Under the pieces are notes generated by a model. The model was given only the letters and a program-made list of their open reading frames with translations, was not told the DNA's origin and made no database searches. From a bacterium (lineage in GTDB: Bacteria > Patescibacteriota > Minisyncoccia > Phycocordibacterales > Phycocordibacteraceae): a DNA stretch of 64,000 bases. Position numbers and translations under genes: made by a program. Positions 1,104 to 64,000 of this stretch are shown here, one piece after another; the stretch's first letter is position 1, and each line of letters starts with the position of its first letter. The stretch covers positions 576,001-640,000 of the forward strand of contig JBBCGK010000001.1 in NCBI GenBank assembly GCA_037200965.1, written 5' to 3'.

Positions 1104-3107
1104 TTATTTCGCACCCCCCGCGTTTTCAGCCGCCTTTTTGAGAAGCCCCTCGATAGTATCGTATTCTTTTTCGGTTTTCTTCTTTTTTGCCTCGGTTCGG
1201 ATTTTTCGTGCGGCGGCGTTGTCGGCAGCGCGCCCAGGACCGCTGAGCCAGTATGGCTTTTCAAGCGGTATACCAAAGAGGCTAAAGTCTTCTTCAAGAG
1301 CCTGCGCGTACCCTTTCTTTCCTTTCCTGATGATATTTCCGTCCTTATCTTTGATTTCTTCAATACCGATTTGAGGAGCCTTGCTGTACGTGTCGATGAT
1401 TTCATTCTGAGTCTTCTCAACAATCTTATGAGCGGCCTTGGCACGCTCAAGTTCCGCTTTTGCGGCATCGATATCGGCCTGCACGCCGGTCGCTTTTGCC
1501 TTGTCAAGCTTCTCCTCAAGCTCGTCGACGTGTTTCTGCGAGGCGTTTCTTTTAGCGTCCGCCTCGTCAATGATTTTTTGTTCTTCCGGAGTGTTCTTCA
1601 TGCGCTTAGACCGTTCCAGACGTCCCTTTTCAGCGTCCGCTTCCATCTGCCGGTAATTACTCTTCGAGGCAGTACCCAAATCAAGGCCACCTGCCTTAGC
1701 AATTCCCCCAAGGGCTCCGCGCCCGTCGAAAGTCGCTTTCGCGCCTGCATCCGCAACGCGGAAGGCGATGCTATTAACCAGCGGACGCTTGCGCAGCCAC
1801 TCGCTCTTTTCGAACCGCTTGCCAAGGCGGTTGAATCCTCTGCCGATCGTGCGTCGGCCCACGGCTGCGCTGATGCCGAAGAACGCACCGCTGGTGGCTT
1901 TGCTTGCCGTACTCACCGCAAAACCAGCCCCCATCGCGCCGAGTTCCTTGGCCGACATGAGCGCGGCGATCATAAAGCCGATGATGATCGCGAAGGTGAT
2001 GAAAACGCTTACGGAACCGCCCCCCCCGGCCGCAAGCGCGGTCGCGAAACCACCGCCTCCCGCCGCCGCCGAGACCCCCTGGCCGATTTTGAGCCCGATA
2101 AGTGTGAGGAGGAGATAAACCGGAACGAAGAACGACTGGTGGAGTATCGTCGTCCACCATTGCTTCGCATACCCATGGAACATCGGCAGCGCCATGCCAG
2201 CAAAACCGATCGGGGAAAGGACCATCAAAAAAGCGAGCACGACGATACGGACTACGAGCATGATCGCGGCGGCGAACAGAACGACGGCCGCGATCAGCAC
2301 GAAGATGGTCGATAAAATTAAGACAATGACACCGTTGAAATTCCCGCTGAATTTGGTATAGGACTGAAGCCCGTCTTCTCCGAAAATAGTGCCGATGCCA
2401 AGCGTGCTGAGGACCGCTCCCGCAAGGCCGGAATCTGTAAAACAGCTTGCACTATTGCTGCTTTGTATGCTGCAGGTGCTCGAACTTTGGGAACTGATGT
2501 TCGAATAAATAGCGGTCGACAGAAGGTTTGAGCTGTCGATAATCACTTGCGAGATAAAGAGCGAGAAGTTGAGAAGAATCGCGAACAGGAGCAGCTGGGG
2601 CAGTGATTTTTTGAGGCCGTAGTTTTGAAGGCCGAGGATGATGGCGATGCCGATAAAGACAAAGCTGAATATGAGTACGATATTCCCGACGTCGCGCAGC
2701 ACCCCCCAGCCGATTCCGATGCCGGATGCGGTACCGCCGAGCGTCTGGCCGAAGTTGAGGACGCTGTAATAAATAGCCGTATTGAGCAGAATGCCCGAAA
2801 GCCACAGAAGGCCCGATGCGAGCGTAAGAAAAAGATAAGCAATGCTGCCCATCGCGCACGGTACCCACGTGCTTACGCTCCAGATGCTGCATTCGGTTGG
2901 TCCTTTGGTGCCGGACTCAGGGGGTCCCGGTGTCGTTTGCGCGGGCGCTGCCGGAGTATTTGTCGGCGGAGTGGTCGCTGGCGGAGTGGGTGTCCCGAAT
3001 CCGGGCGTCCCGTTTCCGAGTGCGAGCAACGAAAGATTTGTCGCAGACGCTACGCTGGGAAGTGCGAGAATCGCGAGCAACAGAAGCGAAAGAAGGAATT
3101 TTTTCAT
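1104..3107 (-). CDS. TrbL/VirB6-like polytopic membrane protein (signal peptide, Thr/Pro linker, multiple TM helices, charged coiled-coil C-terminus)
   Basis: N-terminal signal peptide MKKFLLSLLLLAILALPSVASA, a TP-rich linker, at least 6 hydrophobic helices, and a C-terminal K/E-rich coiled coil. This architecture is typical of TrbL/VirB6. Confidence 0.5.
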   Translation of the reverse strand: MKKFLLSLLLLAILALPSVASATNLSLLALGNGTPGFGTPTPPATTPPTNTPAAPAQTTPGPPESGTKGPTECSIWSVSTWVPCAMGSIAYLFLTLASGLLWLSGILLNTAIYYSVLNFGQTLGGTASGIGIGWGVLRDVGNIVLIFSFVFIGIAIILGLQNYGLKKSLPQLLLFAILLNFSLFISQVIIDSSNLLSTAIYSNISSQSSSTCSIQSSNSASCFTDSGLAGAVLSTLGIGTIFGEDGLQSYTKFSGNFNGVIVLILSTIFVLIAAVVLFAAAIMLVVRIVVLAFLMVLSPIGFAGMALPMFHGYAKQWWTTILHQSFFVPVYLLLTLIGLKIGQGVSAAAGGGGFATALAAGGGGSVSVFITFAIIIGFMIAALMSAKELGAMGAGFAVSTASKATSGAFFGISAAVGRRTIGRGFNRLGKRFEKSEWLRKRPLVNSIAFRVADAGAKATFDGRGALGGIAKAGGLDLGTASKSNYRQMEADAEKGRLERSKRMKNTPEEQKIIDEADAKRNASQKHVDELEEKLDKAKATGVQADIDAAKAELERAKAAHKIVEKTQNEIIDTYSKAPQIGIEEIKDKDGNIIRKGKKGYAQALEEDFSLFGIPLEKPYWLSGPGRAADNAAARKIRTEAKKKKTEKEYDTIEGLLKKAAENAGGAK

Positions 3108-3110
3108 GGC

Positions 3111-4712
3111 TCAGTGGATGACTGGCGAGAGACAAGCATTCGCCTCCTTCACGATATTATTCATCGTGGTTATAAGCGTACCTCCCTCTCCCCCGGAATC
3201 GGTGCTTTGCGTTTCGGCGTCCGCTATTTCGCTCGCGGAAGGCGTGGTTGAAGCAGAAAGGAATTGCTGATAGTTGAGTCCCGCCCGCGCAAGCGCGCCC
3301 GCGGCGGGAACGGAACCGTCCGCAGGCGTTACTTGCTCGGAAAGAATGCCCAGTGTCTGAAGCGAAGCGACGGCCTTCGCATCTGCGGCGGAAGCCTGGT
3401 CTATCACAGGATTCACGACCGTTTCTATCACGGCGCCCGCGTTCGCTCCTTCTTCAAAAGTGCAGGCACCGAAGACAGTATGGCTGTTGGCAGCCTCCGT
3501 GGCCGCCGTCTTTGCCGCATCTGCGGCGGCACCGATCTTCTTCCAGTCGTTCTGATATTTCGTAATTTGCGTTTTTCCTTGCTGGAGCGCTTCCGAGAGA
3601 TTGGATACGACATTCGAGACGTTCCCCGCATCGGCTGCCGCGAGGTCCGGTCGGCTGAAATAATCACTGCCGCCGCCTTGCGGTTTGGAAAGACCCAGGA
3701 AGCCGCTGCCGCCGAGCACGTTCTTGATAAGTCCCTGGAGAACGGCACCGATAATTTCGTCTATCTCGTCGGCCGAGATGACGGAGTCGATCGGGGTGCC
3801 GATCGCCTTGCTCGCGGCGTCCGCGATGACCGAGCCCGGGGTCTCGATATCGTATTCAAGACAGTTTGCACCATTGTCCTTCACGACCGGGTCGGAGAAC
3901 TGGAAGTCCATCGTGCCGTCCGGGTTTGTCGTTACGACCGGGTCGGCCACTTCAACGGTCTGCGGCGCTTGACCTTGCAGTTTGCAGTCGCCGCGCCAGG
4001 AGAGGAAGCCCTTATTCTGAGTTATTTCATCTTTGCTTTGTGTGACTGCCGCAGTCGCCCGGGCGATGAGCTCGTCACGCGCCCGCATCGCGAAGCCCAC
4101 GGGGTTATTCTGGGAATCCATCGTGAACCTGAACCATCCCGAGAGCCCGCCTTTATTGAAATCGAATCCGGAAGATGAAACCGCAACGGTCGCGCTTCCG
4201 AGCGTGCACTGGTTGAGAAGGAAGAATGAGTTGCTCGACGTCGACTTGTAGTAGTCCGCCTGGAGAAGCGCCGCCGTATTTACTTTGAAAGGCAGGTCGA
4301 GTGAGAAGTTACCGATCTGCGAGAAGAATTTCGACGCAACCTGATCGACGATGTTTCCGAGATGCACGTTCAGGTTCACCACGAACGACGGTGATCCGTT
4401 GAAACCGTTGCTCGCCCAACTGACGATGCTTTGCACCATGGCGGCCTTCACTTGCTGCACGACCGCATAAGCGAGCGGATCGAGCACATATTCTTTTATT
4501 TGGAGTGCAAGGGCGTTTTCGGACGTTACGGCATCGGCAGCAGCAGAGATCGTTTGCTTTGCGATTTCGATGAAGGTGGTGGGTGCTGAGTCGCTTGCTA
4601 TGTGCACAGTCTGTGCCTGCACGCGCGAAGAAGCGAAGAGTGTCGGGGCCGCGAGCGAAAGCCCGATGATAAAAACTGCGGCCCGGACGCGACTTGAGGG
4701 GGGTTGCGGCAT
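3111..4712 (-). CDS. secreted hypothetical protein (signal peptide, A/S/T-rich)
   Basis: 533-aa ORF with a signal peptide (MPQPPSSRVRAAVFIIGLSLAAPTLFASS). It is separated by 3-4 nt from its neighbours in the operon. Confidence 0.5.
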   Translation of the reverse strand: MPQPPSSRVRAAVFIIGLSLAAPTLFASSRVQAQTVHIASDSAPTTFIEIAKQTISAAADAVTSENALALQIKEYVLDPLAYAVVQQVKAAMVQSIVSWASNGFNGSPSFVVNLNVHLGNIVDQVASKFFSQIGNFSLDLPFKVNTAALLQADYYKSTSSNSFFLLNQCTLGSATVAVSSSGFDFNKGGLSGWFRFTMDSQNNPVGFAMRARDELIARATAAVTQSKDEITQNKGFLSWRGDCKLQGQAPQTVEVADPVVTTNPDGTMDFQFSDPVVKDNGANCLEYDIETPGSVIADAASKAIGTPIDSVISADEIDEIIGAVLQGLIKNVLGGSGFLGLSKPQGGGSDYFSRPDLAAADAGNVSNVVSNLSEALQQGKTQITKYQNDWKKIGAAADAAKTAATEAANSHTVFGACTFEEGANAGAVIETVVNPVIDQASAADAKAVASLQTLGILSEQVTPADGSVPAAGALARAGLNYQQFLSASTTPSASEIADAETQSTDSGGEGGTLITTMNNIVKEANACLSPVIH

Positions 4713-48188: not shown

Positions 48189-48216
48189 TTGACGAAAGAG
48201 CTACTATGGCTATAAT
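48189..48216 (+). promoter_or_regulatory. sigma70-like promoter TTGACG-16 nt-TATAAT
   Basis: Near-consensus boxes. The -10 box ends 7 nt before the antitoxin ATG at 48224, suggesting a leaderless or short-leader transcript. Confidence 0.45.
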
Positions 48217-48223
48217 GGCTCGT

Positions 48224-48499
48224 ATGACCAAAACGCTCATCAATGAAAATATGATCGACGCGCGGGAGGCGAAGAATAACTTCGGCGCGCTTATCGACGC
48301 CGCGCAGCGCCGCCCTATCATCATCCGCAAGCACGGGCGCAAGGTCGCCGTCATGCTCTCGCCGGAGGAATTCGCGCTTTTCGAGCGCATGGAGGACATC
48401 GTGTGGGGAAAGAAGGCGATGGCGGCACTCAAAAAGAACGATTTTCTCGGTCCGGCCGCGTCCAAACGCGTTCTCGACAAGTACCGCAATGCGGCTTGA
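48224..48499 (+). CDS. type II antitoxin, Phd/YefM family
   Basis: Sequence MTKTLINENMIDAREAKNNFGALIDAAQRRPIIIRKHGRKVAVMLSPEEFALFE. Confidence 0.65.
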   Translation: MTKTLINENMIDAREAKNNFGALIDAAQRRPIIIRKHGRKVAVMLSPEEFALFERMEDIVWGKKAMAALKKNDFLGPAASKRVLDKYRNAA

Positions 48500-48758
48500 G
48501 CTTTCCAAAGCATTAGACCGTTTCCTCGCCCGCATTCCGAAGAAACACGCGGGCCAAATTACCCGTAAGATCGACGAGTTGCTGATCAATCCCTATCCCA
48601 TAGACAGCAAGCTCCTGTCCGGCATCCCTCTGTATCGCGTCGATGTAGGCGAATACCGGATAGCGTACCGCGCGTATACGACTATGCTCGTCGTGGTTCT
48701 TGTTGGTAAGCGAAACGACGGCGATGTTTACCGCCGCCTGGCGAGGATGTTCCGTTAG
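48489..48758 (+). CDS. type II toxin, RelE/ParE family
   Basis: Sequence GEYRIAYRAYTTMLVVVLVGKRNDGDVY. It overlaps the antitoxin by 11 nt. Confidence 0.65.
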   Translation: MRLELSKALDRFLARIPKKHAGQITRKIDELLINPYPIDSKLLSGIPLYRVDVGEYRIAYRAYTTMLVVVLVGKRNDGDVYRRLARMFR

Positions 48759-52439: not shown

Positions 52440-53702
52440 TCAGGCCGCAACCGAAAGCCTTTCGGCGACGCGCCTAGGCACGTCGCTGTAGAAGCGCTTC
52501 GGCAGGGATATGCCATCTTTCACGCACCCGTTGTTGAACTTGTTGATCTGGTAGTTCACGCTGCCTTGCCAGATATCAACCAGCGATGCATCCCGCACAT
52601 TCGGATGGACGACGAAGTCGGGTGTGTCGTTTCCGGGGCATCTCCAGACGGCACCATCGTAGTGCAGATAGAGTCCGTGCGTGAGCTGATTGCACGGAGC
52701 GATGCCGATGTAGGATGCGGCGCCTTCATGGTACAGCTGTTCAAGGGTCATGACGCCGCGGGTGATGGCCCAAGTGTAGACGTCGACGGCGAGGTCGAGA
52801 TAGTCGTTCTCGAACTTCTCATCCGCAGCCGACCTCACCAGCTTATGGCCCTTGCCGCTCACCATGGTGGGCGGCATCACAACGGGGATATTTCGTTCGG
52901 TTCCCCACTGATAGAGCTCGAACGCGCCATGTACGTTTTCGCCCGTAACCGGAGCGCAGGCGATCTCGAGGCGCTGATGCAGGAGGTCGCCGTTCATCCC
53001 GAGTCCGCAGAGGCGCTCGATGGCGAGGTTCCGCGCCGCGTGATAGTCGAACCTGATATCGCGGAACTCGCGCAAGTTCTGCGGAATGAAGCGATTTTCA
53101 AGCTCGGGATCGAACGACCGTGCGCCGACGAGGAACGTGGTGTTTGGATATGCCGCAAGACGCCGGGTCAGGTCCTCCGATCCGATCCCGTGATAGTGCC
53201 GCGACAGATGGTCATTGCCCATGATTGCCGCCTTGGTGAAGATACCGGCGATGATGTTCCTTTTCGCCAGCTCATCGAGGATGAAGAAGAGCTTTGAATT
53301 CGCCAGCAGTTCTCCGGGACCGAGAAACTTCATCGACTCGAGCCCGAGCAGTTTCGCCTGGTCGACAACCCGCATGACTTCAGGAAGAGTCATGATCGGA
53401 TTGACCAATTCGGCGTTGTTGAAGCAGCCGGGACAGGCGTGCGGACACGGATAGTTCTTCACGAACGTGTCCTTCGCCTCTTTGGAACCGGGCGCATGCG
53501 CGTTGACCTTGGCCGCAAAACCGGCCTCGGGGATATTGAGATCGAGGGTAAGCATTTTCTTTACGCGCTTGCCTTCAATCTCAACGCTTTCCCCGATACG
53601 GCTTTCAGGGAAGCTCCATTTATACACCATCAATGCGTAGCCGTTCGGGATCTGGCCCTTGGGCGGCAGAATGGGCACAACGGCAGGGAATATGTTTTTC
53701 AT
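52440..53702 (-). CDS. radical SAM protein with Cys-rich C-terminal (SPASM/twitch-like) region
   Basis: Motifs CPHACPGCF (CxxxCxxC + aromatic) and GPGELL. C-terminal cysteines (APC, WRC, GCV). Confidence 0.7.
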   Translation of the reverse strand: MKNIFPAVVPILPPKGQIPNGYALMVYKWSFPESRIGESVEIEGKRVKKMLTLDLNIPEAGFAAKVNAHAPGSKEAKDTFVKNYPCPHACPGCFNNAELVNPIMTLPEVMRVVDQAKLLGLESMKFLGPGELLANSKLFFILDELAKRNIIAGIFTKAAIMGNDHLSRHYHGIGSEDLTRRLAAYPNTTFLVGARSFDPELENRFIPQNLREFRDIRFDYHAARNLAIERLCGLGMNGDLLHQRLEIACAPVTGENVHGAFELYQWGTERNIPVVMPPTMVSGKGHKLVRSAADEKFENDYLDLAVDVYTWAITRGVMTLEQLYHEGAASYIGIAPCNQLTHGLYLHYDGAVWRCPGNDTPDFVVHPNVRDASLVDIWQGSVNYQINKFNNGCVKDGISLPKRFYSDVPRRVAERLSVAA

Positions 53703-53874
53703 GACGGTAGCCTTTCGGGTTGGGTTGCCTTTCTTTCAAGAAGCTTCGCACTTCTTCCGCAAGTATATTTCTACAAGTCAAGGATGTCAATAGGTCGTAT
53801 GCTAAAATAGGGCTTACTTAAAGCATGTGCACAGTAGTGTGGAACGCGTTTGACACGAATATACCCTATAGAGT

Positions 53875-54678
53875 ATGATTAAACTCATGAAAAAAAGACA
53901 AGAGGACGCGTCAGAAACGCTTCTGTCTTTAGGGCTTTCAAGAAGGGAAGTAGGAGTGTATATCGCGCTTTTAGAGCTTGGACACGGGACGGTCACCCAG
54001 ATATCAAGAAAGGCGGGTATAAATAGGACGACTGGTTACGATATCCTTGATGCGTTAGCGCACAAGAACCTCGCGCGGCTCTCCGGTAAGGAGCCAAAGG
54101 AAGAATACGTGGCTGAATCTCCGGAAAAGCTCGTTACGCTGCTTGATGAGAAGCTGGCAGAGACACAAAAGCAGCTGATCCTTGCGAAGGAATTTCTCCC
54201 GCAACTCAAAGCGATGCATACGGTTCAGGATCGTCCGCAAGTACGGTTCTATGAGGGTGTCGAAGGACTCAAAGAAGTATATGAAGACACTTTGACTTCC
54301 CCGGAACCGATTCGTGCGTACGCCTGTATCGACGACATGCACAAGGCGCTCCCCAACTACTTTCCCGAGTACTATAAACGTCGCGCGCGCAAAGGCATCT
54401 CGATACGCGGCATAGTCCCCGAGACAAAAACGGCGATGGCGCAGGCTGCGTTTAATGCGGAGGAAAAACGCGATATAGCGTTCGTGCCTGCCGATAAGTA
54501 TTACTTCTCTCCGGAAATAAATATTTACGCTAATAAAGTTATGGTGGCATCGTGGCGCGAGAAGCTCGGCATCATCATAGAAAGCGCCGAGATCGCTGAT
54601 GCCATGAAAAAGATATATGAGCTGGCGTGGGCAGAAGCCAAGCGGCTTGATGCGGCGAACTCACCGGTGTCGACATAG
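53875..54678 (+). CDS. TrmB-family transcriptional regulator
   Basis: Sequence LGLSRREVGVYIALLELGHGTVTQISRKAGINRTTGYDILDALAHKNL. Confidence 0.75.
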   Translation: MIKLMKKRQEDASETLLSLGLSRREVGVYIALLELGHGTVTQISRKAGINRTTGYDILDALAHKNLARLSGKEPKEEYVAESPEKLVTLLDEKLAETQKQLILAKEFLPQLKAMHTVQDRPQVRFYEGVEGLKEVYEDTLTSPEPIRAYACIDDMHKALPNYFPEYYKRRARKGISIRGIVPETKTAMAQAAFNAEEKRDIAFVPADKYYFSPEINIYANKVMVASWREKLGIIIESAEIADAMKKIYELAWAEAKRLDAANSPVST

Positions 54679-54714
54679 GCAACGTCGAAGGAAGGAGCAG
54701 GTTACTATGTATCC

Positions 54715-55854
54715 ATGAAAAGCGTTCGCGATATTCCGGTGCTTGAAAACGTACCGGTATTCGTGCGCTCGTCGCTCAATGTTCCGTTGGTAGATGGAAA
54801 GGTAGCGAACGCGTACCGCATCAAGCACGCGCTTCCCACCATCGAATTCCTCCGGAAAGAGAACGCGCGCATTGTTATCGGAAGCCATATCGGGGAAGCG
54901 GGAACCGAGACGCTCGAGCCCGTATACCTCGCGCTCAAGCAGATGCTCCCCGGCGTCTCGTTCTGCCCGGTCTCTACGGGTCCCCGGGCGCGCGAAGCGG
55001 TGCGGGCGCTTCTGCCGGGCGAAGTTCTCGTGCTTGAGAACCTGCGCAGGAATCGGGGGGAAGTGATGAACGACATGGCGTTTGCCGAAGCGCTTGCCGA
55101 ACTCACGGATGTCTTTGTCGAAGATGCGTTCGATACCTGCCATCGCGAGCACGCATCGATAGTAAGCCTTCCGACGCTCCTGCCTTCGTATGCGGGGCTT
55201 CAGCTCATCGAGGAGATCGCCGAACTCTCGAAGGCGCTCAAACCGAAGGCCCCGTCGCTCGCGGTCATCGGCGGCGCGAAGTTCGGCACCAAGGAGCCCG
55301 TGATCCGCAAGCTTCTCTCCCTCTACACGCACGTGTTTGTGGGCGGCGCGCTTGCGAACGATTTTCTCGCAGCTAAGGGCTATCCCGTGGGAAAGTCGCT
55401 CGTTTCGGGCGGAGATGCCGCCGCTACTAAAGAACTCTTGGTGGATAAGAAACTGGTGCTTCCGCTCGATTCGCTCGTCTGCAAATCCGGCGGCGCGAAA
55501 ACGCCCGGACAGGCACGTATCGCGGGACTTGATGACGTTCAGGAAGACGAAACCATCCTCGATCACGGCCCGAAGACGAATGAAATGCTCGCGAGATTGG
55601 CAGCCGGCGCGAAGACGATTCTCTGGAACGGGCCGCTCGGCCAGTATGAGGCGGGCTTCACGGAAGCGACGGATGCGCTTGCGGTCGCCATCGCCGACTC
55701 AGGCGCGGAGTCATACATCGGGGGAGGAGACACGGAAGCTGCCATCGACTCGCTCGGCCTCAACCGCCGATTCACGTTCATATCGACCGGCGGCGGCGCG
55801 ATGCTTTCGTATCTTGCGAAGGGGACGCTTCCGGGGATTGAGGCGCTGGGCTAG
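54715..55854 (+). CDS. pgk: phosphoglycerate kinase
   Basis: Full-length match to the PGK domain architecture (GSHIGEAG...STGGGAMLSYL). Confidence 0.9.
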   Translation: MKSVRDIPVLENVPVFVRSSLNVPLVDGKVANAYRIKHALPTIEFLRKENARIVIGSHIGEAGTETLEPVYLALKQMLPGVSFCPVSTGPRAREAVRALLPGEVLVLENLRRNRGEVMNDMAFAEALAELTDVFVEDAFDTCHREHASIVSLPTLLPSYAGLQLIEEIAELSKALKPKAPSLAVIGGAKFGTKEPVIRKLLSLYTHVFVGGALANDFLAAKGYPVGKSLVSGGDAAATKELLVDKKLVLPLDSLVCKSGGAKTPGQARIAGLDDVQEDETILDHGPKTNEMLARLAAGAKTILWNGPLGQYEAGFTEATDALAVAIADSGAESYIGGGDTEAAIDSLGLNRRFTFISTGGGAMLSYLAKGTLPGIEALG

Positions 55855-56111
55855 GTTCCGTACAGGTTATGGTGCGTGTCGATGTCCGTGAGGACGATGG
55901 CGTCACCTACCATCTCGTAGATGAGTCGCCAATCGCCGGTCACGTTGATGCTTCGAAAGCCCGTCCATTCTCCCCGCAAGGGATGGTTGTTAAGTAGCGG
56001 GTTTTGAGGATCGGCCATAAACAGCCTAAGGCGCTCGACGAGCGCGCGGCGGATACCAGCCGGTAGGCGCGATACTCGTTTCTCAAACTGTCGTTTGCGG
56101 AGAACCTGCAT
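55851..56111 (-). CDS. type II toxin, RelE/YafQ family
   Basis: Sequence LLNNHPLRGEWTGFRSINVTGDWRLIYE. Confidence 0.65.
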   Translation of the reverse strand: MQVLRKRQFEKRVSRLPAGIRRALVERLRLFMADPQNPLLNNHPLRGEWTGFRSINVTGDWRLIYEMVGDAIVLTDIDTHHNLYGT

Positions 56112-56113
56112 GA

Positions 56114-56383
56114 CTATGCGCGTATGGCGCGCGCGAATTCTTCAAGGGACGAAGCGATGAAATGCTCCGGATGTTCGCGGTATTCGCGGCTAAGCGCTTC
56201 CCATTCGCGCAGCTTCTCCGGACGCGGTACAAGCGATACCTCGAACCGCCCGTCGGAAACGAACTGCGCGAGCTGCGCGTTCATAACGGTAGTAAGGGGA
56301 ATGCCGAGCTTCTGCGCGGTGCGCTTCGCGGCATCCCGGAGCTTTTTGTCAGTCTTGATGGTGATAGTTGTTTTCGTATTCAT
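56114..56383 (-). CDS. type II antitoxin, DinJ/RelB family
   Basis: Sequence ITIKTDKKLRDAAKRTAQKLGIPLTTVMNAQLAQFV. It lies directly upstream of the toxin gene. Confidence 0.6.
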   Translation of the reverse strand: MNTKTTITIKTDKKLRDAAKRTAQKLGIPLTTVMNAQLAQFVSDGRFEVSLVPRPEKLREWEALSREYREHPEHFIASSLEEFARAIRA

Positions 56384-56530
56384 ACCTATATACTACTTTG
56401 GGTATGAGCGTGCTGTCAATCCAATGCAGTTCAAATCTCGTCCGCGAGCCCGCGCACTTCACAAAACCGCCTATCTGGGCGGCTTTGTGTTTAAGAGAAC
56501 GGAATGTTTAAACCAGGTATACTTTTAGTT

Positions 56531-56890
56531 ATGGAAGACTGCATTTTCTGCAAAATAGTGAACCGAGAATCACCTGCCTCGGTAGTGTTTGAAGACGATA
56601 CCTCTATGGTAATTGAACCCATTGATCCTATTTCAAAAGGACATGTACTCGTGCTGCCCAAGAAACATTTTGTGAATATGCTCGATACCGACGACGAGAC
56701 GTTATCTCATCTTGCTGTCGTTTCCAAGAATGTCGGGCACACAGTGCTTGGAAAAAACAACGCTCACTCAATGAACCTTCTCCATGCCGCTGGGATGGAG
56801 GCGCAGCAATCCGTATTCCATCTCCACTTCCATATCGTGCCACGGTATGAGAATGATGGGCTGGATCTCTGGTTTAGGAACAGTCTCTAG
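56531..56890 (+). CDS. HIT-family (histidine triad) protein
   Basis: Sequence MEDCIFCKI...HLHFHIVPR. Confidence 0.8.
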   Translation: MEDCIFCKIVNRESPASVVFEDDTSMVIEPIDPISKGHVLVLPKKHFVNMLDTDDETLSHLAVVSKNVGHTVLGKNNAHSMNLLHAAGMEAQQSVFHLHFHIVPRYENDGLDLWFRNSL

Positions 56891-56991
56891 GATTAGAGAG
56901 GATACTGGAATCGAACCATTCTCTCAGAAAGCACAGTAAGCTGAGCTAACACAATTTCGGTATAAGAATATAGCCCCTACACTCTCTTATC

Positions 56992-57504
56992 TTGGTTCCA
57001 ACAGCGTCTACGAGCTCGCGCACTCTGGACGATAGTGGAACTGCTATAGTTCCTGATATGGAAATTCCACAGATTAAGATGATTTACGCTTATCCGTTAG
57101 ACGAGGACAGGCGACGGTTTTTCTCTCAACAAAACTTAGGCCGGTATCCCTCCGTTGAAGAGGTCAGGGATACGACTTCTCACTGGAGAAATGTATGGAA
57201 TGAAACCAATAGAGACAACAGGATCGTCTTAACGTTACAAGAGTTAACGAAGAGAGTGCCAACGCGGAGCTTAGAGTGTTTCATTATCGGAGGAGGCATT
57301 AAAGCCATGTCTACCCCCTTCATTATTTCAGTCAGAAAAAGAAATGGGGAAGAGCGCTCAGATCAAGACTTCATCGAGACGCTAATTCACGAAGCAGCGC
57401 ATATTTTCGTATCAGACGTTCCGGCCTACTTCGACTCTCTTCGCGAGAAATATTCCGGGAGCCGCTATCTGCCCGGAATCATATACTCATTTACGCGCTA
57501 TTAG
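56992..57504 (+). CDS. hypothetical protein with HExxH motif (LIHEAAHIF), putative small metallopeptidase
   Basis: 170-aa ORF. The start is uncertain. Confidence 0.4.
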   Translation: MVPTASTSSRTLDDSGTAIVPDMEIPQIKMIYAYPLDEDRRRFFSQQNLGRYPSVEEVRDTTSHWRNVWNETNRDNRIVLTLQELTKRVPTRSLECFIIGGGIKAMSTPFIISVRKRNGEERSDQDFIETLIHEAAHIFVSDVPAYFDSLREKYSGSRYLPGIIYSFTRY

Positions 57505-57793
57505 AGAAACTATACTTAGACCTATTTAATTCTCGCCCAAGTGACTTTGCTAACAGTGACCTGCCGGACAGTTATATCCGAGCGATAGAAATCGTTAAGC
57601 AAGAGGGTTACGAAAAGCTGATTGAAGAATACCAGTCCTTCGTGTAGTAGTTCCGAGGTTGTCCGTAAGGTCGCGACCCTCCCATCTGTTTCACAAATAT
57701 GCCCGAATCTTCCCCGCATTCCCCTCGAAATCCATTTTGTCCCCTTCCGCTTGGCCTGGGAATATCCAGATATTCAATCGGTGGCAACGCGGT

Positions 57794-57848
57794 AGTAGCG
57801 TATCTTGCATGGGAAACGCTTCCGGGGACTGAGGCGCTGGAATCCTAG
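57794..57848 (+). repeat. degenerate duplicate of the pgk 3' terminus (would encode ..AYLAWETLPGTEALES*), direct repeat of 55805-55856
   Basis: CGTATCTTGC...ACGCTTCCGGGGA[T/C]TGAGGCGCTGG is shared with the pgk end (25 bp with 1 mismatch inside a ~45-bp ~85% match). Confidence 0.6.
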
Positions 57849-58615
57849 AGAGCCTTCCACATAAAGGCATGCATATTTTTAAACAGATTAGCGATATCCT
57901 TGTTTTCGATAACAACCGCAGATAAGTCCCGGAGACTTATAAGCGCGACCTTTTCGTTGAAAACAAGAACGTCGACATTGGACGTAAACCATTCGGGGAG
58001 CCGTTTGTCTGATTTATTTTCATATCCGTTCTTCTCGCGCAGAGCTCGCAGTTTTTTGTAGGTTTTAGCGCTTGCGATAAACAAATCCTTCGCCTTAAAC
58101 GCGTGATCGCTATTTGTCTTGTCGAAATCGCCGTATTCTGCTTCGGTGAAGTTTTCGAAGAAAATATCGGCGGGGAAGATGGAATACGTATCGCCGAGCG
58201 TTTTAAACAGTTCCTCGTAAATATTCTTGATCGCACGCTTTCCTTCGAAGAAGCCGACCTTGGGCTTGTTCGTCGCGCGTTCATATATCTTGCTCATGAC
58301 GGCGGCAGTCGAGTCGAATGCTAGAAGCTCCTTCCTAAGATTTGCGGCGACGGTCTTCGGATCGACTGCCGCGTACAGCGTGCGCTTGCCGATAGGTATC
58401 CGAGTAATGAAACCCTTTTTGAGCAGAAGATCCAGATATTCGTAGCAGGTAGCGCGCCGCACGTCCGCTTGGCGGACTATATCCGCGACTCCCATGCGGC
58501 TTTTCCCGAGAAGCGACACGTAAATCACCGCAGCCTTATCCGGCAAACCGATTCGTTCCAACTCCTTTATGAACGGGATATGTTCCATAAGTTCATATAA
58601 GCTGACTTGGAACAA
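57845..58615 (-). CDS. TrmB-family transcriptional regulator
   Basis: Sequence IGLPDKAAVIYVSLLGKSRMGVADIVRQADVRRATCYEYLDLLLKKGFI. Confidence 0.7.
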   Translation of the reverse strand: MFQVSLYELMEHIPFIKELERIGLPDKAAVIYVSLLGKSRMGVADIVRQADVRRATCYEYLDLLLKKGFITRIPIGKRTLYAAVDPKTVAANLRKELLAFDSTAAVMSKIYERATNKPKVGFFEGKRAIKNIYEELFKTLGDTYSIFPADIFFENFTEAEYGDFDKTNSDHAFKAKDLFIASAKTYKKLRALREKNGYENKSDKRLPEWFTSNVDVLVFNEKVALISLRDLSAVVIENKDIANLFKNMHAFMWKAL

Positions 58616-58720
58616 ATGTCAACGAAAGCGACATATTTTACCAGTACCCTCTAAACCACCCTTCACTTTATAAGTCTATTAATAAATATAAGCGTTATTC
58701 CAGACACAAGTACCCATTTA

Positions 58721-59245
58721 TTGAATACTGGGCGGGCTGGTATGGCGCTAAAATCAAAGACAACTCTGCAAACCAAACGCGGCATTTTCGAAGTCGGATA
58801 TTACGTTGTAGACGGGAATCCTTATGTTTCTTTCCGCTACGGGGATGTTTCCCAGGGCAGACCAATAGTGCGATTACAGTCGGCTTGCCTTTTCGGGGAG
58901 GCTTTCGGTTCGCTTGAGTGCGAGTGTGGCGCGCAACTTGCCAAGGCTCTGGACGCCATTGTTAGCCGCGGGGCGGGTCTTGTGCTCTATGCCTATGCGG
59001 AAGGTCGTGGCGCAGGGCTTGAGAAAAAGATAGAAGCTATGGAGATTCAAAGGACGACCGGATGCAATACAGTCGAAGCTTTTGACTCGCTTGGTCTTGA
59101 GAAGTCCGACTACCGGGATTATCAGGCTGAGGTGAACATCCTCACCGAGTTAGGCACAAGCCTCCATATCTGCTTGTTTTCGAAAAATCCAGCTCGATAT
59201 CAAGCGCTCAAAGACGCAGGCTTCGATGTAGATCCATATGAGTAG
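58721..59245 (+). CDS. GTP cyclohydrolase II (RibA)-family protein
   Basis: Motifs RLQSACLFGEAFGSLECECGAQLAKAL (zinc Cys triad) and EGRGAGLEKKIEA...NTVEAFDSLGLEKSDYRDY. The start may be the internal MALKSK. Confidence 0.75.
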   Translation: MNTGRAGMALKSKTTLQTKRGIFEVGYYVVDGNPYVSFRYGDVSQGRPIVRLQSACLFGEAFGSLECECGAQLAKALDAIVSRGAGLVLYAYAEGRGAGLEKKIEAMEIQRTTGCNTVEAFDSLGLEKSDYRDYQAEVNILTELGTSLHICLFSKNPARYQALKDAGFDVDPYE

Positions 59246-60140
59246 CTCGTCTGAGCTTATGTATCGTTGGCTTCGCGTATCTCCTACCGGAGACGGATAT
59301 ATCGAGCCCGATTATTACGATCAGCTTCTCAGAAAGTATATCTTTGATGGTAAAGAGGATACCGAGTACTTCCGAGAACATCTTGCAAAAGCACCTTCTC
59401 ATTCAGCATTTCTTGAGCTTGGCCCCGGGACCGGACGAGCGACAAATATACTATTCGCATCGGTTCCGGACATACATTCGCTTACGCTCGTTGATTTAAG
59501 CAGCCGTATGCTTAGTAGCTGCAAACAAGTTTTCACCCGCAAAGAATGCATTTCTTATGTCGTTTCCGATTCCATAGATTTCCTGTTGTCAGTGCAGTCG
59601 TCGTACGACTATATCTATAGCCTGTGGAGTCTTTCTCACTCCATACACAAGAATCTTGAAGACTTGGGAAAAGAAGACGGAAAAGCAAAAGTACGAGAGG
59701 CGCTCTTAAAAATGGTACGGGAGAATCTCAACCGGAACGGCTCTTTATTCCTGATACATTTCGATTCTTCCTCTCCCGAGCAGGAAATATCTATTCGGCA
59801 AAGGCGGCGCGATTCCCGTGACCGGAAATTGTTTGCAGATGTCTCCAAACAAAGTCCCTCTAAGGAAATACTCGACGAGTGCCTTGAAGAATTAAGGCGC
59901 TCGGGTGAGATCTGTTTTGAATGTGAGAGGCATGTAGGTACAGCGCTCGAATTCAGTTCGCTCGACGAAGCGCTCGAGTATTATCTTAATTTCCATATGG
60001 CTTCGTATTTCAATACCTCAAGTTCGATCGACGACATCTTGAAGGAGCTTTCTCAGGATTTACTGGAACACCAAGGGAGTGATGGAAAGATACGGATCGT
60101 TCCCGGTTGCTTCATCTACAAAGCAAGTAAGCCTGGTTAA
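59238..60140 (+). CDS. class I SAM-dependent methyltransferase
   Basis: Motif LELGPGTGRAT. Overlaps the upstream gene by 8 nt (ATGAGTAG). Confidence 0.6.
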   Translation: MSSSSELMYRWLRVSPTGDGYIEPDYYDQLLRKYIFDGKEDTEYFREHLAKAPSHSAFLELGPGTGRATNILFASVPDIHSLTLVDLSSRMLSSCKQVFTRKECISYVVSDSIDFLLSVQSSYDYIYSLWSLSHSIHKNLEDLGKEDGKAKVREALLKMVRENLNRNGSLFLIHFDSSSPEQEISIRQRRRDSRDRKLFADVSKQSPSKEILDECLEELRRSGEICFECERHVGTALEFSSLDEALEYYLNFHMASYFNTSSSIDDILKELSQDLLEHQGSDGKIRIVPGCFIYKASKPG

Positions 60141-60176
60141 ATGTTGGTTGCCAGAAAGCTCCCTATATAAAAATCA

Positions 60177-60998
60177 CTAAGATACTTGGCTATTCATCAG
60201 ATCGCGCAAAAGCTCGTTCGCATCTATAAGCTGCGAATGCTCCTGCATAAATTCAAAGGCGGAAAGAATCATTTTTTGTATCTCCGAGTTCTTGACTTCG
60301 ACAATCAATCCTTCGCTTAAGGAGAAGAGATATAAGGAATCCTTAAATATCCAGCACTGGCCGCCATGCCTGAAGTACTTTGGATCAATAACATTGACTC
60401 TCGCGGTGCGTCCTTCGAAATCTTTCACCCATTGTATTCCTAGAGAACGCGCTTGTTCCTCAAGCCACCCGATTGGCAAGACAGCTTCGGTAATCGTACG
60501 GCCCTTCTTTATATCGCGGTTTATTCGGTTTGTTTCGGAAACGGTGAACAGGGTATTCCAACTCTTGGTCGCGCGGTCACCTTGGAAGCCCCAGAAGAAC
60601 CGTTGGTTCTTGTTCGCTTCAAAGAGCTCAAGCATGACCTTCCTAATTGCTTCTTTTCCCCGATAGATACATACCGTTGAGTCAGCGCGACCGTGAACCT
60701 GTTGGTTTCCTTCGGGTATTTGCAGCAAGAAACGCTTGAAATCGTATAGTGCCTGATCAATAGTATCTCCGCTATGCAATTGCCACCGCTTGCGTCCTTT
60801 GGCGATGCGCGAAACGGCCAGCCCTCGTTTATGCAGATTCGCCAAAATCGCATAAATGGCAGAGCGGGAGATTCCCGTCTGGCGAGTCAGCTTTAAGGGC
60901 GTATCCGCACCGTCGCGAAGCGCCAAGAGAATCTTCCTTTCCTTGATTGAGAGGCCGAGTATTCGCAGATCATCGTGAAGTGCCATACGGCAAAACAT
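60177..60998 (-). CDS. TrmB-like transcriptional regulator
   Basis: Sequence LGLSIKERKILLALRDGADTPLKLTRQTGISRSAIYAILANLHKRGL. Confidence 0.65.
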   Translation of the reverse strand: MFCRMALHDDLRILGLSIKERKILLALRDGADTPLKLTRQTGISRSAIYAILANLHKRGLAVSRIAKGRKRWQLHSGDTIDQALYDFKRFLLQIPEGNQQVHGRADSTVCIYRGKEAIRKVMLELFEANKNQRFFWGFQGDRATKSWNTLFTVSETNRINRDIKKGRTITEAVLPIGWLEEQARSLGIQWVKDFEGRTARVNVIDPKYFRHGGQCWIFKDSLYLFSLSEGLIVEVKNSEIQKMILSAFEFMQEHSQLIDANELLRDLMNSQVS

Positions 60999-61169
60999 AG
61001 CAAAAGGTATATAACCTGTCCACTTTCTTAGACAGATATATAAAGCATAAAAACCCTTATATACAGCTTATTTCCAGTATTACTCAACTTAGAGAATACC
61101 TTACTATACTGTCAATGTCTTTAGGATCATTCTTATAGAGGGAACTAGAACTTTATATGGGAGACCGCT

Positions 61170-62318
61170 ATGGCTTGCGAAACGAACGAAGTGCCGCAGG
61201 AAGTGACCGCGATCGATCGTTGGATTGACCACGTATTGCACGGAGAAAAGGATACTGCGATTCCAACGTTACTTGGTCGGGAAGTTCCACCTCTTTTGTC
61301 GTGGATAGTGCGGGGCGGATGCGCGATACAGTGCCGCCACTGCATCTTTCCTCACGAAGGCCCGAAAACCTTCGGCGTGCAAACGGGCGAGGAAGCGCTT
61401 CTCGGCATTCTCCGCCAGTTGTCCGGTTCGCGCCACCTCATTCACGAAGGAAGGCAGCTACTTCCGTGGCAGGTACCGATCTTGGCGGCTGCAGGCCGCG
61501 CAGGACACGGAGTATCGCTTATCAATAACGGACAATATGCAGCGCCGAATATGCTGGCGCTATGCGAGCGAGAGGGGCTCGCAATCGACGCGCTTGACGT
61601 GTCGGTCGACGGTACGAAAGATATCCACAATGGACAGCGCGCGAGCAATAATGCCTGGGACATCGCAATGAAAGGGATTGTGCATGCCAAGCACATACTC
61701 AAGACCGATGGCAAACTTACTTCTCTCTTCACGCTCACCACGCTCAATCACGCGCACTTAGCCGAAACGGGAGAGATGCTCACGCAGGTGGTCGATGAAT
61801 GGCACGTGACGACGATGTCGTTACGGCCGGGGATCGAGCACCTGCGGGCAGGCGATCGCGAACTCGCCTTAGCGCTTGAACAATTGCTCGGCGGCAACTT
61901 CGCGAAACCAGTGTTCCTGCGTACCTATTCTCTCGACGATTTTGTCGCTCTGCTTGGAATTCTCGGAAAAGAAACGGCAAATAGGGTTCTCAGGAACGCG
62001 CTGGTGACTTATAACGCCATCGTACTCGATATCGGAATACCCCTGTACTTCTATCCTAAGTCCCTGCAGGTGAATGAAACGTTAGTGATCGACGCGGATG
62101 GGTGGTGGCGTCTGCCGTTTTGCATCCATCACTCGCTTGCGGAACTGCGGGCGGGAGAGGATGAGATGGGCAAGGATATTTCGCATTTCAATGTCGTCCC
62201 GGTACTGCCGTGCGTGGATGTCCCAACTCTCCATGCCAAGGCCGCATCGAGATGGTGGGTCAGTATAGGCCGGGATTGTTTATCGCTTGAGCGCCAGGCG
62301 CTCGAAGCGTTTCTCTAA
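61170..62318 (+). CDS. radical-SAM-like enzyme (CxxxCxxC: GGCAIQCRHCIF) with C-terminal Cys residues
   Basis: N-terminal Cys triad in typical rSAM spacing. Three further Cys near the C-terminus. No other family assignment is possible by eye. Confidence 0.5.
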   Translation: MACETNEVPQEVTAIDRWIDHVLHGEKDTAIPTLLGREVPPLLSWIVRGGCAIQCRHCIFPHEGPKTFGVQTGEEALLGILRQLSGSRHLIHEGRQLLPWQVPILAAAGRAGHGVSLINNGQYAAPNMLALCEREGLAIDALDVSVDGTKDIHNGQRASNNAWDIAMKGIVHAKHILKTDGKLTSLFTLTTLNHAHLAETGEMLTQVVDEWHVTTMSLRPGIEHLRAGDRELALALEQLLGGNFAKPVFLRTYSLDDFVALLGILGKETANRVLRNALVTYNAIVLDIGIPLYFYPKSLQVNETLVIDADGWWRLPFCIHHSLAELRAGEDEMGKDISHFNVVPVLPCVDVPTLHAKAASRWWVSIGRDCLSLERQALEAFL

Positions 62319-62341
62319 CAACCGGAAAGGAGGTGAAAACT

Positions 62342-62461
62342 ATGTCCGGAGCCAATACCGGTTCCGCTGGCGTGGATGCGAAAGCACGTCCGCCAGTGCA
62401 ATCGTCAGGGGCGAATACCGGTTCGACGGGCGTAACGACGCCGCGTTTGCCGCGTAAGTAG
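62342..62461 (+). CDS. 39-aa repeat peptide MSGANTGSAGVDAKARPPVQSSGANTGSTGVTTPRLPRK, candidate RiPP precursor/substrate
   Basis: Strong SD AAGGAGGTGA 8 nt upstream. Begins 24 nt after the rSAM-like stop. Two copies of SGANTGS[AT]GV. A nested hairpin (62472-62515) lies downstream. Confidence 0.4.
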   Translation: MSGANTGSAGVDAKARPPVQSSGANTGSTGVTTPRLPRK

Positions 62462-62738
62462 CCTCGGTGACTACAGAGAGCCCGTTCACGCTTTTGATTC
62501 GCGTGGGCGGGCTCTTCTCTTTTATACACTAAATGTGATTCTCGATGTTTCTTTAGAATCGATCGGTCGCCGTTCGCGTAGCCGAGACGGGTCTAACAAT
62601 CGAACGATAGCGGCGCAATGCTCAAGTCTCTTGCGGCTGAATGTTTTCAGCGATTGAAGCATTGAGAGACTAAACAGATTACTCTATTCATAAAGACGCA
62701 TATACCACCTCGTAAAGTCACCCAATACCGCTTTGGTA

Positions 62739-63554
62739 TCAACGACGAATATGAAAATCCTTGGATATACGGCGTTTCCACGCGGCGGCTTTCCCAGGGT
62801 CTTTAGCAATTTTTACCTTTGATGTAACTTCGTGATCTAACTTCTTCAACTTATCCTTGGCGCGCTCAAGGTCGGTTTCCGTTTTAAAGAGAAGTTCGAC
62901 TGCCTTTCGAGCTTTGGGATTAAAACGCACTTCAATCACCCATTCGTGGATTACGGCAATAAACACTTCTTGACGAACTTTCGGCGAGTACGATACCTCA
63001 ACGTTAGAGAATGCGAGCTCCCGGGTTGCGAGCTTGTCGAGCGCCGAAGAGGAGCCGATGAGAAGATAGGCTCTTCTTCCTTTTGCTCCAAGGAGCATAT
63101 CGTGGCTTTTGTCGCTATCGCCACGCAGTACACTCGACCAATTATGCGGATTAAAGAGGTAAAGGTGCTGGCGGTGAGGAACACCCTTTTCAATTACTGA
63201 AAACAGATGGGACCATATCCGATCCATAGCAGTAAGACCATGAATGGTAAGCGTGATCTCTTCTCCGCGTTCAAGCTGACTGAAGTCGCCGAGGATGGAA
63301 CTGTTTTTATATTCGACAAGCTGGCGAAGCTGCTTTAACCAATGTTCGCTTACCGATACGGCAGAACGGTAGACGATAACCTTCTCTTGCGCTCTCAGCT
63401 TTCTAAGCGCCCTATAAAAACCCTGCTTCGTGCAGGCGTGCTTCCTCCTCAGGCCTTTAAGGAGCTCAGTAGTCGTAACCGCTCCTTTTTGAAGTACAAA
63501 AGTAAGGACTGAATCTTCAAGGCGGCTGCCTAACAGTTGCATAGCAGTAAACAA
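62739..63554 (-). CDS. uncharacterised winged-helix regulator-like protein, paralog family X (3 of 3)
   Basis: 271 aa, homologous to 12985..13788 and 26571..27374 (FNPHNWSS, IGSSSALDK). Confidence 0.55.
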   Translation of the reverse strand: MFTAMQLLGSRLEDSVLTFVLQKGAVTTTELLKGLRRKHACTKQGFYRALRKLRAQEKVIVYRSAVSVSEHWLKQLRQLVEYKNSSILGDFSQLERGEEITLTIHGLTAMDRIWSHLFSVIEKGVPHRQHLYLFNPHNWSSVLRGDSDKSHDMLLGAKGRRAYLLIGSSSALDKLATRELAFSNVEVSYSPKVRQEVFIAVIHEWVIEVRFNPKARKAVELLFKTETDLERAKDKLKKLDHEVTSKVKIAKDPGKAAAWKRRISKDFHIRR

Positions 63555-63658
63555 CCCGTTTACTATACACCCATTTTGGCCCAGATGCTTGAGCTTGGCA
63601 AAAGGCGGGTTCTAAATGTACGCGGACGGAAGAACCGTTCTCTTTGGAGGAACGAACT

Positions 63659-64000
63659 ATGTGTTTTTGTGGCTATGATCCGAAAATGGGCGAGAGCGTC
63701 CGGGTGTTTGCTGAGGGGTTGAATCGATCCCTCAGCGCCAAGGCCGAGCGTCTCGGTCTTACCATGTCCGCGCAGATGCAATCGGAAGCGCTCGAGCTGA
63801 ACGCGCTGATCGAACTCCTGAACCAGAAGCTCGCGAACTCGGAAGACTCTCGACGACATGAGCTGGAAGGACTGCTCGGCATCGTGTACCTCATTCGTGC
63901 TCTTATGCAGCCGGAACGAAACGAGATATCCGTTCGCAGCGACTTCGAACTCTCAGTTCGCACGCGGGCAGTTCGACTGGACGAGAGCATGATTCGCTTC
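63659..64000 (+). CDS. hypothetical protein, 5' partial view (continues beyond window)
   Basis: ATG preceded by GGAGGA. The open frame runs to the window end. Confidence 0.3.
   Translation, partial: MCFCGYDPKMGESVRVFAEGLNRSLSAKAERLGLTMSAQMQSEALELNALIELLNQKLANSEDSRRHELEGLLGIVYLIRALMQPERNEISVRSDFELSVRTRAVRLDESMIRF

Follow-up and report, generated by a model that had tools for sequence, protein, structure and literature searches.

Duplicated ends of pgk and of its convergent neighbor in a patescibacterial chromosome, probably left by a recombination between two alleles of a variable islet

Overall arrangement of the locus

We analyzed the region downstream of pgk, the gene for phosphoglycerate kinase (PGK), in a 64,000-nt stretch of DNA from a bacterium of the Phycocordibacteraceae (Patescibacteriota; GenBank assembly GCA_037200965.1, contig JBBCGK010000001.1, positions 576,001 to 640,000; referred to as the window). 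In this region the 3' end of pgk and the 3' end of its usual convergent neighbor, a HIT-family gene named HIT(-), each occur twice. The layout is A-(TA, X)-B'/A'-(Y)-B, where A and A' are the two pgk ends, B' and B the two HIT(-) ends, TA is a toxin-antitoxin pair, X a patch of low GC content and Y a segment of several genes. We consider it reasonably probable that the locus arose by one recombination event, in which two alleles of a variable islet, located between the convergent pgk and HIT(-) genes, were joined.

The window belongs to the 960-kb contig JBBCBH010010897.1 (GCA_037975565.1), and coordinates beyond 64000 are given as window-equivalent positions. The features of the locus are:

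54715-55854, + strand: pgk, intact, 379 aa (PF00162, E = 1.8e-98, profile positions 6-377 of 379; nearest relatives 74-80% identical)
55783-55854, + strand: A, the functional pgk 3' end, encoding ...STGGGAMLSYLAKGTLPGIEALG and the stop (repeat search, translation)
55851-56111, - strand: RelE/YafQ-family toxin gene, 86 aa
56114-56383, - strand: gene for a RelB/DinJ-like antitoxin, 89 aa
56380-56419, - strand: predicted promoter/operator of the toxin-antitoxin pair (promoter scan)
56420-57685, + strand: patch X, 45.7% GC, with a hairpin and the two following genes
56531-56890, + strand: HinT-like HIT gene, named HIT(+) (PF01230, E = 2.9e-23)
57058-57647, + strand: HExxH pseudogene
57686-57773, - strand: B', 88 nt, relic of the last ~26 codons and the stop of a 118-aa HIT(-) gene
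57773/57774, no strand: probable illegitimate joint between B' and A'
57774-57848, + strand: A', displaced and decaying pgk 3' end, encoding ...SIGGNAVVAYLAWETLPGTEALES and a stop that overlaps the TrmB2 stop by 4 nt
57845-64000 and on to window-equivalent 64196, no strand: segment Y (Pfam, NCBIfam)
window-equivalent 64203-64559, - strand: intact HIT(-) gene, 118 aa, followed by recJ

For comparison, we collected the gene contexts around the closest PGKs, judged colinearity by blastn and assigned gene families with Pfam and NCBIfam. These relatives are annotated as Parcubacteria/Paceibacteria (Patescibacteria, candidate phyla radiation (CPR)). Ordered by PGK identity they are L010 (80%, the closest), L008/L009 (78%), L005-L007 (77%) and L011/L012 (74%); at the nucleotide level the best pgk identity among four aligned relatives is 74%. 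A scan of genome contigs with PGK returned just a 60%-identical Saccharibacteria fragment and one archaeon, neither of them useful.

The repeated pgk terminus

A preliminary description of this DNA, made from the letters alone, had reported that the end of pgk recurs about 2 kb downstream. In our repeat search, positions 55783-55849 and 57774-57840 match over 67 nt without gaps at 76% identity (51/67). With a single 3-nt indel the match extends in frame to both TAG stops (55854 and 57848). The best 67-mer match in each of 200 shuffles of 55861-64000 averaged 30.9±1.3 identical positions (maximum 36), and the runner-up real match to the pgk end inside the window is 37/67. No third copy was found up to window-equivalent 73.5 kb. 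The recurrence is real; at 67-75 nt it is longer than the ~45 bp first described, and the 50-mer of the second copy starts at 57799 rather than 57794, a trivial offset. The longest exact run shared by A and A' comprises 13 nt (ACGCTTCCGGGGA), although a longer core may have been lost through decay.

The working pgk uses the proximal copy A. The distal copy had been proposed to encode an alternative PGK C-terminus, but as it stands it is not usable for that purpose, because it carries the changes GGG to GGN, AML to AVV and KG to WE relative to A. That a replacement end was supplied is borne out insofar as A' is a displaced, decaying terminus; an integrating element as the source of the replacement is not.

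A' ends in ALES and a stop, a derived terminus that is also found in the live pgk of L010. The gene directly after A' is TrmB2 (4-nt stop overlap), and a TrmB2 gene also directly follows pgk in L010, there after a gap of 6 nt. From the shared terminus and the shared neighbor we conclude that A' is the pgk end belonging to the allele that carried segment Y.

The second repeat and the joint

In the preliminary description the four genes lie between the two pgk termini. The segment does not stop at the HExxH gene, however; it ends in an 88-nt piece of HIT(-), the normal neighbor of pgk in relatives. This piece, B', encodes IWIFPGQAEGDKMDFEGNAGKIRAYL and a stop at 57691-57773, i.e. the C-terminus of the 118-aa HIT protein of the L011 type. 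It is 78.6% identical to the HIT(-) 3' end of L011, of which positions 2309-2378 align to window positions 57701-57770 (blastn). The intact HIT(-) gene lies 6.4 kb downstream of B' and is 78% identical to that of L011. Its 3' end, B (window-equivalent 64197-64285), is 90% identical to B' with an exact core of 43 nt at 57714-57756.

B' and A' abut at 57773/57774; each fragment meets the other with the end that pointed into its gene of origin. A three-way comparison with B and A indicates 3-4 nt of possible microhomology at this position (CAT/ATAT); both sides have since diverged. The order of the relics, B' before A', follows from a single non-homologous joint between a pgk-TA-X-HIT(-) allele and a pgk(ALES)-Y-HIT(-) allele. 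Two successive end-replacing integrations, one at pgk and one at HIT, are excluded by topology: they predict A' before B', the reverse of what is seen.

An ORF (open reading frame) of 49 aa with an ATG start (57699-57848) runs antisense through the HIT relic into the pgk relic and ends at the stop of the latter. It has no family match and is most likely spurious.

Assembly support

The arrangement was recovered from another sample. In assembly GCA_015655515.1, contig 1 covers window positions 55199-57531 at 99.6% identity, and contig 2 (9,996 nt) runs from 57565 onward through B', the joint, A', Y, B, HIT(-) and RecJ at 99.9%, with a gap at 57532-57564 between the two. A' and the junction to its left are unchanged in this second NCBI assembly and also in the Logan assemblies from two runs, so the second pgk copy of the preliminary description is reproducible. 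The structure is independently reproduced in two samples, and so is the phasing of the two B copies.

An assembly artefact, namely a chimeric contig made from two strains through the repeated HIT or pgk ends, could explain why short-read and Logan contigs break at 57531, 57565, 57727 and 57743, near or inside B'. The breaks at 57727 and 57743, both from the same Logan run, are accounted for by the exact core of 43 nt, which exceeds the Logan k-mer. The independent 9,996-nt contig from the other sample spans the stretch from the end of X to RecJ, and A', being decayed, cannot derive from the live pgk of a co-assembled strain. We regard an artefact as extremely improbable.

The locus in related genomes

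In L011/L012 and L005-L007, pgk is followed by the convergent HIT(-) gene, with a 4-nt overlap of the two stops, and then by RecJ, a small ORF, RNase H, ComEC and superoxide dismutase (SOD). L008/L009 show the same backbone with a YafQ-type toxin and an antitoxin added between pgk and HIT(-), which is again followed by RecJ; there is no second pgk end. L010 has a radical-SAM gene, a TrmB gene and pgk, followed by a convergent TrmB-family gene, the orthologue of TrmB2. On the contig of the window, the order HIT(-), RecJ, RNase H, ComEC, SOD is that of the L005, L008 and L011 backbone.

The preliminary description had anticipated an empty site in the pgk region of relatives, and L010 provides one, without ~2.0 kb exactly at the pgk 3' end. 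Its positions 1251-3178 align to window positions 53914-55847 (72.8% identity, blastn) and its positions 3202-3647 to 57852-58297, with exactly 55848-57851 missing. L010 is colinear on both sides of this stretch and thus represents the empty site, albeit at just 80% PGK identity.

Such a site would suit a site-specific integrative element (55855-57773) that entered the 3' end of pgk via a pgk-mimicking attachment site (attP), supplied A, displaced A' and lost its integrase. The direct repeats are in frame at both borders, the pgk frame is intact through the supplied end, and an unrelated contig has a close homologue of HIT(+) in the vicinity of a large serine recombinase. However, no recombinase or transposase was found with Pfam and NCBIfam among ORFs of at least 100 aa, either in the 2 kb of the segment or in the whole 8.3 kb between pgk and HIT(-); the nearest transposase (rve_3) is located several kb past ComEC. 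The lack of an integrase, already pointed out in the preliminary description, therefore extends over the segment and the next 6.4 kb, and the longest block identical in A and A' has 13 nt. The four genes had also been taken as one cargo. Their composition is mosaic (TA 56% GC, X 45.7%): the toxin-antitoxin pair is chromosomal and colinear with pgk in L008/L009, where no repeat is present, and HIT(+) and the HExxH pseudogene form a separate low-GC patch. The right end carries the HIT(-) fragment as a passenger, so that the unit resembles a chunk of a relative's chromosome. The unit was not found to recur as a whole, with the same ends, in other genomes; the toxin-antitoxin pair of L008/L009 is without X as well as without repeats. 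Finally, no tRNA or other classical attachment target is present: there is no Rfam match in 55.5-58.8 kb, and the sole tRNAs are at 25.9-28.7 kb, on which ground a tRNA or tmRNA fragment as attachment site was rejected. Taken together, the observation made in the preliminary description is confirmed and its interpretation partly supported; an integrative element is an unlikely origin of the locus.

Two further candidate sequences were dismissed. The start of a 30-nt repeat (D5, 56429/56995) loosely resembles a tRNA T-arm by eye; many similar pairs exist, and the repeat does not exceed chance level. A supposed short pgk-end relic in L008, located between its antitoxin gene and HIT(-), amounts to a 9-nt resemblance by eye at a non-equivalent position, and a scan placed it at chance level.

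The toxin-antitoxin pair

The gene content given in the preliminary description (a RelE/DinJ pair, a HIT gene and an HExxH gene) is present. The toxin is above both curated RelE/YafQ thresholds (PF15738, 40.9 bits, cutoff 30; TIGR02385 RelE/StbE, 39.1 bits, cutoff 27.9), and its stop and that of pgk share 4 nt (CTAG). The antitoxin gene is located 2 nt upstream of the toxin gene; its product matches TIGR02384 with E = 5.7e-07 and 29.7 bits, below the cutoff of 45.65. Upstream of it are a -35 box (TTGACA, 56419-56414), a -10 box (TAGTAT, 56395-56390) and an inverted repeat (TCATACC...GGTATGA, 56380-56406). The pair is predicted to be an autoregulated mRNA interferase module of the RelE type with the usual function.

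L008 959-2666 aligns to window positions 54715-56419, which comprise pgk, toxin, antitoxin and promoter, and the homology ends exactly at the -35 box (blastn). The toxin in the same position of L008 shows 67% and the antitoxin 78% protein identity, and the promoter with the 7-nt inverted repeat is conserved. Compared with L008/L009, the nucleotide identity of the pair is 66-70%, about as diverged as pgk (70.5% to L008). The linkage of pgk and the toxin-antitoxin pair is therefore old, and the pair is no recent cargo. Its composition is core-like (56% GC and 0.68 GC at third codon positions (GC3), against ~60% and 0.68-0.75 in core genes). The pair is present in the window and in L008/L009 and absent from L005, L010 and L011.

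A second putative toxin-antitoxin pair was observed at ~48215-48758, 6 kb upstream of pgk and adjoining a pilus ATPase gene. Its members are a PhdYeFM antitoxin and an ORF of 89 aa that overlaps it.

Patch X

Patch X has the highest AT content of any stretch in the window (45.7% GC, compared with a mean of 55.1±4.1% in 1-kb windows). At its left edge, between the toxin-antitoxin promoter and HIT(+), there is a terminator-like hairpin (56467-56492, CCGCC...GGCGG and a T-rich tail), which can form on either strand.

HIT(+) is predicted to be a HinT-like nucleotide hydrolase. It is 85% identical in nucleotides to a gene in the unrelated contig L048; the homology is limited to the ORF and is closer than that of any pgk relative. 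This suggests a recent horizontal spread of the gene among Patescibacteria. An origin as an inverted copy of the neighboring HIT(-) was rejected, with 33-36% identity to every HIT(-). In L048 (2106-4378), one 152-aa gene separates the homologue from a gene for a large serine recombinase (Resolvase, Recombinase and Zn_ribbon domains), and APH/zeta-toxin-like kinase genes come after the homologue.

The HExxH gene turned out to be a pseudogene with a 1-nt frameshift at a GGG run (57457-57459), and the copy in the window is dead. When its frames are merged, they can be aligned over the full length to intact homologues of 191-203 aa, including the invariant residues H111-E112-x-x-H115, E135 and N141-H142. 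The family is rare (18 matches in 5.8 billion proteins), has no Pfam or NCBIfam model, and its members elsewhere are located between a response regulator and uvrA. Relatives of HIT(+) and relatives of the HExxH gene occur in unrelated contexts and are unlinked to each other.

Proposed recombination event

Based on the repeats, the joint and the comparison with relatives we propose the following course of events. Allele 1 would have comprised pgk, the RelE/RelB pair, patch X with HIT(+) and the HExxH gene, and HIT(-); its pgk-TA part is seen in L008/L009. Allele 2 would have comprised pgk with the ALES terminus, TrmB2, GTP cyclohydrolase II, further genes and HIT(-); L010 shows its pgk-TrmB2 part. 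DNA of one allele, probably from a close relative and acquired by uptake, would have undergone homologous recombination at one end. At the other end it would have been joined illegitimately, fusing a point 88 nt inside the HIT 3' end to a point 75 nt before the pgk stop (57773/57774). The analysis shows directly the repeats, the empty site, the colinearity with relatives, the joint, the lack of a recombinase and the reproducibility of the structure. We infer from the scar the mechanism (homology-facilitated illegitimate recombination (HFIR) with displacement of a 3' end), natural transformation as the way of entry, and which allele was resident. Three topologically equivalent routes could have led to this result: a linear fragment of allele 1 anchored in pgk, a linear fragment of allele 2 anchored in HIT/recJ, or a circularized fragment integrated by a single crossover (Campbell-type). 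All three would need one illegitimate joint in addition to homologous recombination. In each case the body of pgk would keep the complete end A and HIT(-) would keep B, whereas the truncated B' and A' would remain as dead relics, back to back. ComEC (PF03772) is encoded downstream and a T2SSE/MshEN pilus ATPase upstream; genes of a putative competence machinery are thus present nearby.

Several points weigh against this proposal. No unmerged allele was found at more than 80% PGK identity, and the parents are deduced from relatives that are 26-30% diverged in DNA. A' is 76% identical to the window's own A, 61% to the end in L010 and 61-65% across the pgk ends of L010 and L008, and A and A' have the derived residues Y-L-A and E-A-L in common. 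With A' nearer to its own A than to the L010 end, both alleles would have come from closer relatives than any sampled. No breakpoint was detected inside pgk in comparisons with L010 and L008 (sliding identity; max-chi2 p = 0.84), so that the homologous side is not located; at 70-74% nucleotide identity these relatives are too distant for a breakpoint to be detectable. The microhomology at the joint is short, and decay has obscured it. Finally, A and A' (76%) are more diverged than B' and B (90%; Fisher p = 0.027), which a single simultaneous origin does not obviously predict. This disparity is compatible with a homologous exchange through B with A' as a passenger, or with a two-step event.

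The disparity also bears on a model in which a tandem duplication came first. According to this model, ~160 nt with the overlapping ends of pgk and HIT(-) were doubled (A-B'-A'-B), after which the toxin-antitoxin pair and X were inserted between A and B', and Y between A' and B. This yields the observed order of the four gene ends, and the pgk/HIT boundary demonstrably holds different DNA in different relatives. A/A' and B'/B should then be equally diverged, however, and they are not. At least three independent events would be needed, each exactly at a gene boundary, and the model leaves unexplained both the separate, relic-free pgk-TA (L008) and pgk-TrmB2 (L010) arrangements and the derived ALES terminus that A' shares with L010. 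We consider a tandem duplication distinctly unlikely.

It is very unlikely, in our view, that the merged locus works as a two-way switch, or that the toxin-antitoxin module travels with both neighboring gene ends as homology arms. If the former were true, a RecA-dependent deletion between A and A' would yield a pgk(ALES)-TrmB2 allele like that of L010, and one between B' and B a pgk-TA-X-HIT allele resembling the order in L008. Populations of this bacterium, with its reduced genome, could in this way keep two sets of accessory genes at a single site and segregate one or the other. If the latter were true, a toxin-antitoxin cassette could spread among competent Patescibacteria without a recombinase.

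The joining of two islet alleles, which we favor, is a known and ordinary kind of event, and the locus is a neat example of it from a lineage with few documented cases. The genomes of Patescibacteria (CPR) are tiny, with few recognizable mobile elements; laboratory genetics is lacking for these bacteria, and their gain of accessory genes is mostly a matter of inference. Here a readable joint has been kept: the ends of a housekeeping gene and of its neighbor would have been duplicated when the alleles were fused without a dedicated recombinase, the outcome expected of DNA uptake combined with one-sided homologous recombination. A duplicated gene terminus together with an empty site in relatives does not suffice for identifying an integrative element. 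In practical terms the value of the locus is modest and consists in a worked example and in pgk/HIT(-) as a marker locus for allele turnover in metagenomes.

Segment Y and further neighboring genes

The remaining genes around the locus are:

52440-53702, - strand: radical-SAM/SPASM gene (Pfam; same order in L010)
53875-54678, + strand: TrmB-family regulator TrmB1 (Pfam; same order in L010)
57845-58615, - strand: TrmB2, 256-aa ORF recorded as a 247-aa product (segment Y)
58721-59245: GTP cyclohydrolase II gene (segment Y)
59238-60140: methyltransferase gene (segment Y)
60177-60998, - strand: TrmB3 (segment Y)
61170-62318: radical-SAM gene (segment Y)
62739-63554, - strand: gene for a 271-aa protein, followed by one for 140 aa (both unassigned; segment Y)

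TrmB regulators (TrmB1, TrmB2 and TrmB3) and two radical-SAM/SPASM-like genes (420 aa and 382 aa) flank pgk on both sides (52440-54678 and 57845-62318). These sets may represent a paralogous theme to either side of a gene of glycolysis. The divergent pair of TrmB2 and GTP cyclohydrolase II (57845-59245) recurs in most of 18 metagenomic loci (L013-L030), with TrmB2 identities of 50-58%, and none of the 18 loci adjoins pgk. Judged by these contexts, the pair appears to behave as a conserved two-gene unit that moves between contexts. The idea that Y is a pgk-targeting element with a pgk end of its own was rejected, as all 18 loci are without pgk or pgk-end relics nearby.

Two observations concern the flanks in relatives. 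In L005 (6618-8004), whose PGK is 77% identical, a bAvd accessory gene (- strand) and a reverse transcriptase gene (RVT_1), i.e. the gene pair of a diversity-generating retroelement, are located directly upstream of pgk. In L034 (1652-2554, window-equivalent ~71.0-71.9 kb), a transposase gene of the insertion sequence type (HTH_Tnp_1 and rve_3) lies between the Lactamase_B and HTH backbone genes; it is not present in L005.

Comparison with known systems

The toxin-antitoxin pair agrees with type II RelE/YafQ-RelB/DinJ modules in the order of antitoxin and toxin, the 2-nt spacing, the palindromic operator over the promoter and the patchy occurrence in close relatives. The module itself is ordinary, apart from an antitoxin that scores under the NCBIfam cutoff.

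Some genomic islands and prophages insert at the 3' end of a tRNA, tmRNA or protein gene, which they restore, and thereby duplicate the attachment site (attL/attR). The present locus resembles them in the direct repetition of the target 3' end at both borders, the intact target and the empty site in relatives. In contrast to such islands it has no integrase and no identical core of more than 13 nt, and it contains syntenic chromosomal DNA of relatives together with a piece of the neighboring gene. Another repeat pair, B'/B, is moreover arranged in tandem with the first and abuts it at B'/A'.

Displacement of C-terminal (3') ends with orphan remnants has been proposed for rhs, contact-dependent inhibition (CDI) and type VI secretion system (T6SS) effector-immunity loci (PMC5361080, citing Jackson et al. 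2009). In those loci, as here, a new 3' end with its downstream genes takes over the gene body, and the old end persists downstream as an orphan with short homology. Theirs are polymorphic toxin tips under diversifying selection, with immunity genes kept for their function. In the window, the gene is a housekeeping kinase, both ends have the same function, the orphan is decaying and the toxin-antitoxin pair is separate from pgk.

HFIR during natural transformation has been described for Acinetobacter baylyi, Streptococcus pneumoniae and Pseudomonas stutzeri, with an insertion-deletion as the outcome (PMC3240628). Here the process is deduced from a scar, and the donor tail would have held a homeologous gene end, giving a short duplication of gene ends instead of an insertion-deletion. 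In other respects the locus corresponds to that process: one end would be anchored by homology (in pgk or in HIT/recJ) and the other joined illegitimately, non-homologous genes were carried along, no recombinase is present, and ComEC and a pilus ATPase are encoded here. Outward from the anchor, HFIR is expected to leave DNA that is colinear with a related chromosome, and this is what we observe, with pgk, the toxin-antitoxin pair and its promoter as in L008 and the 3' end of HIT(-) at the far end.

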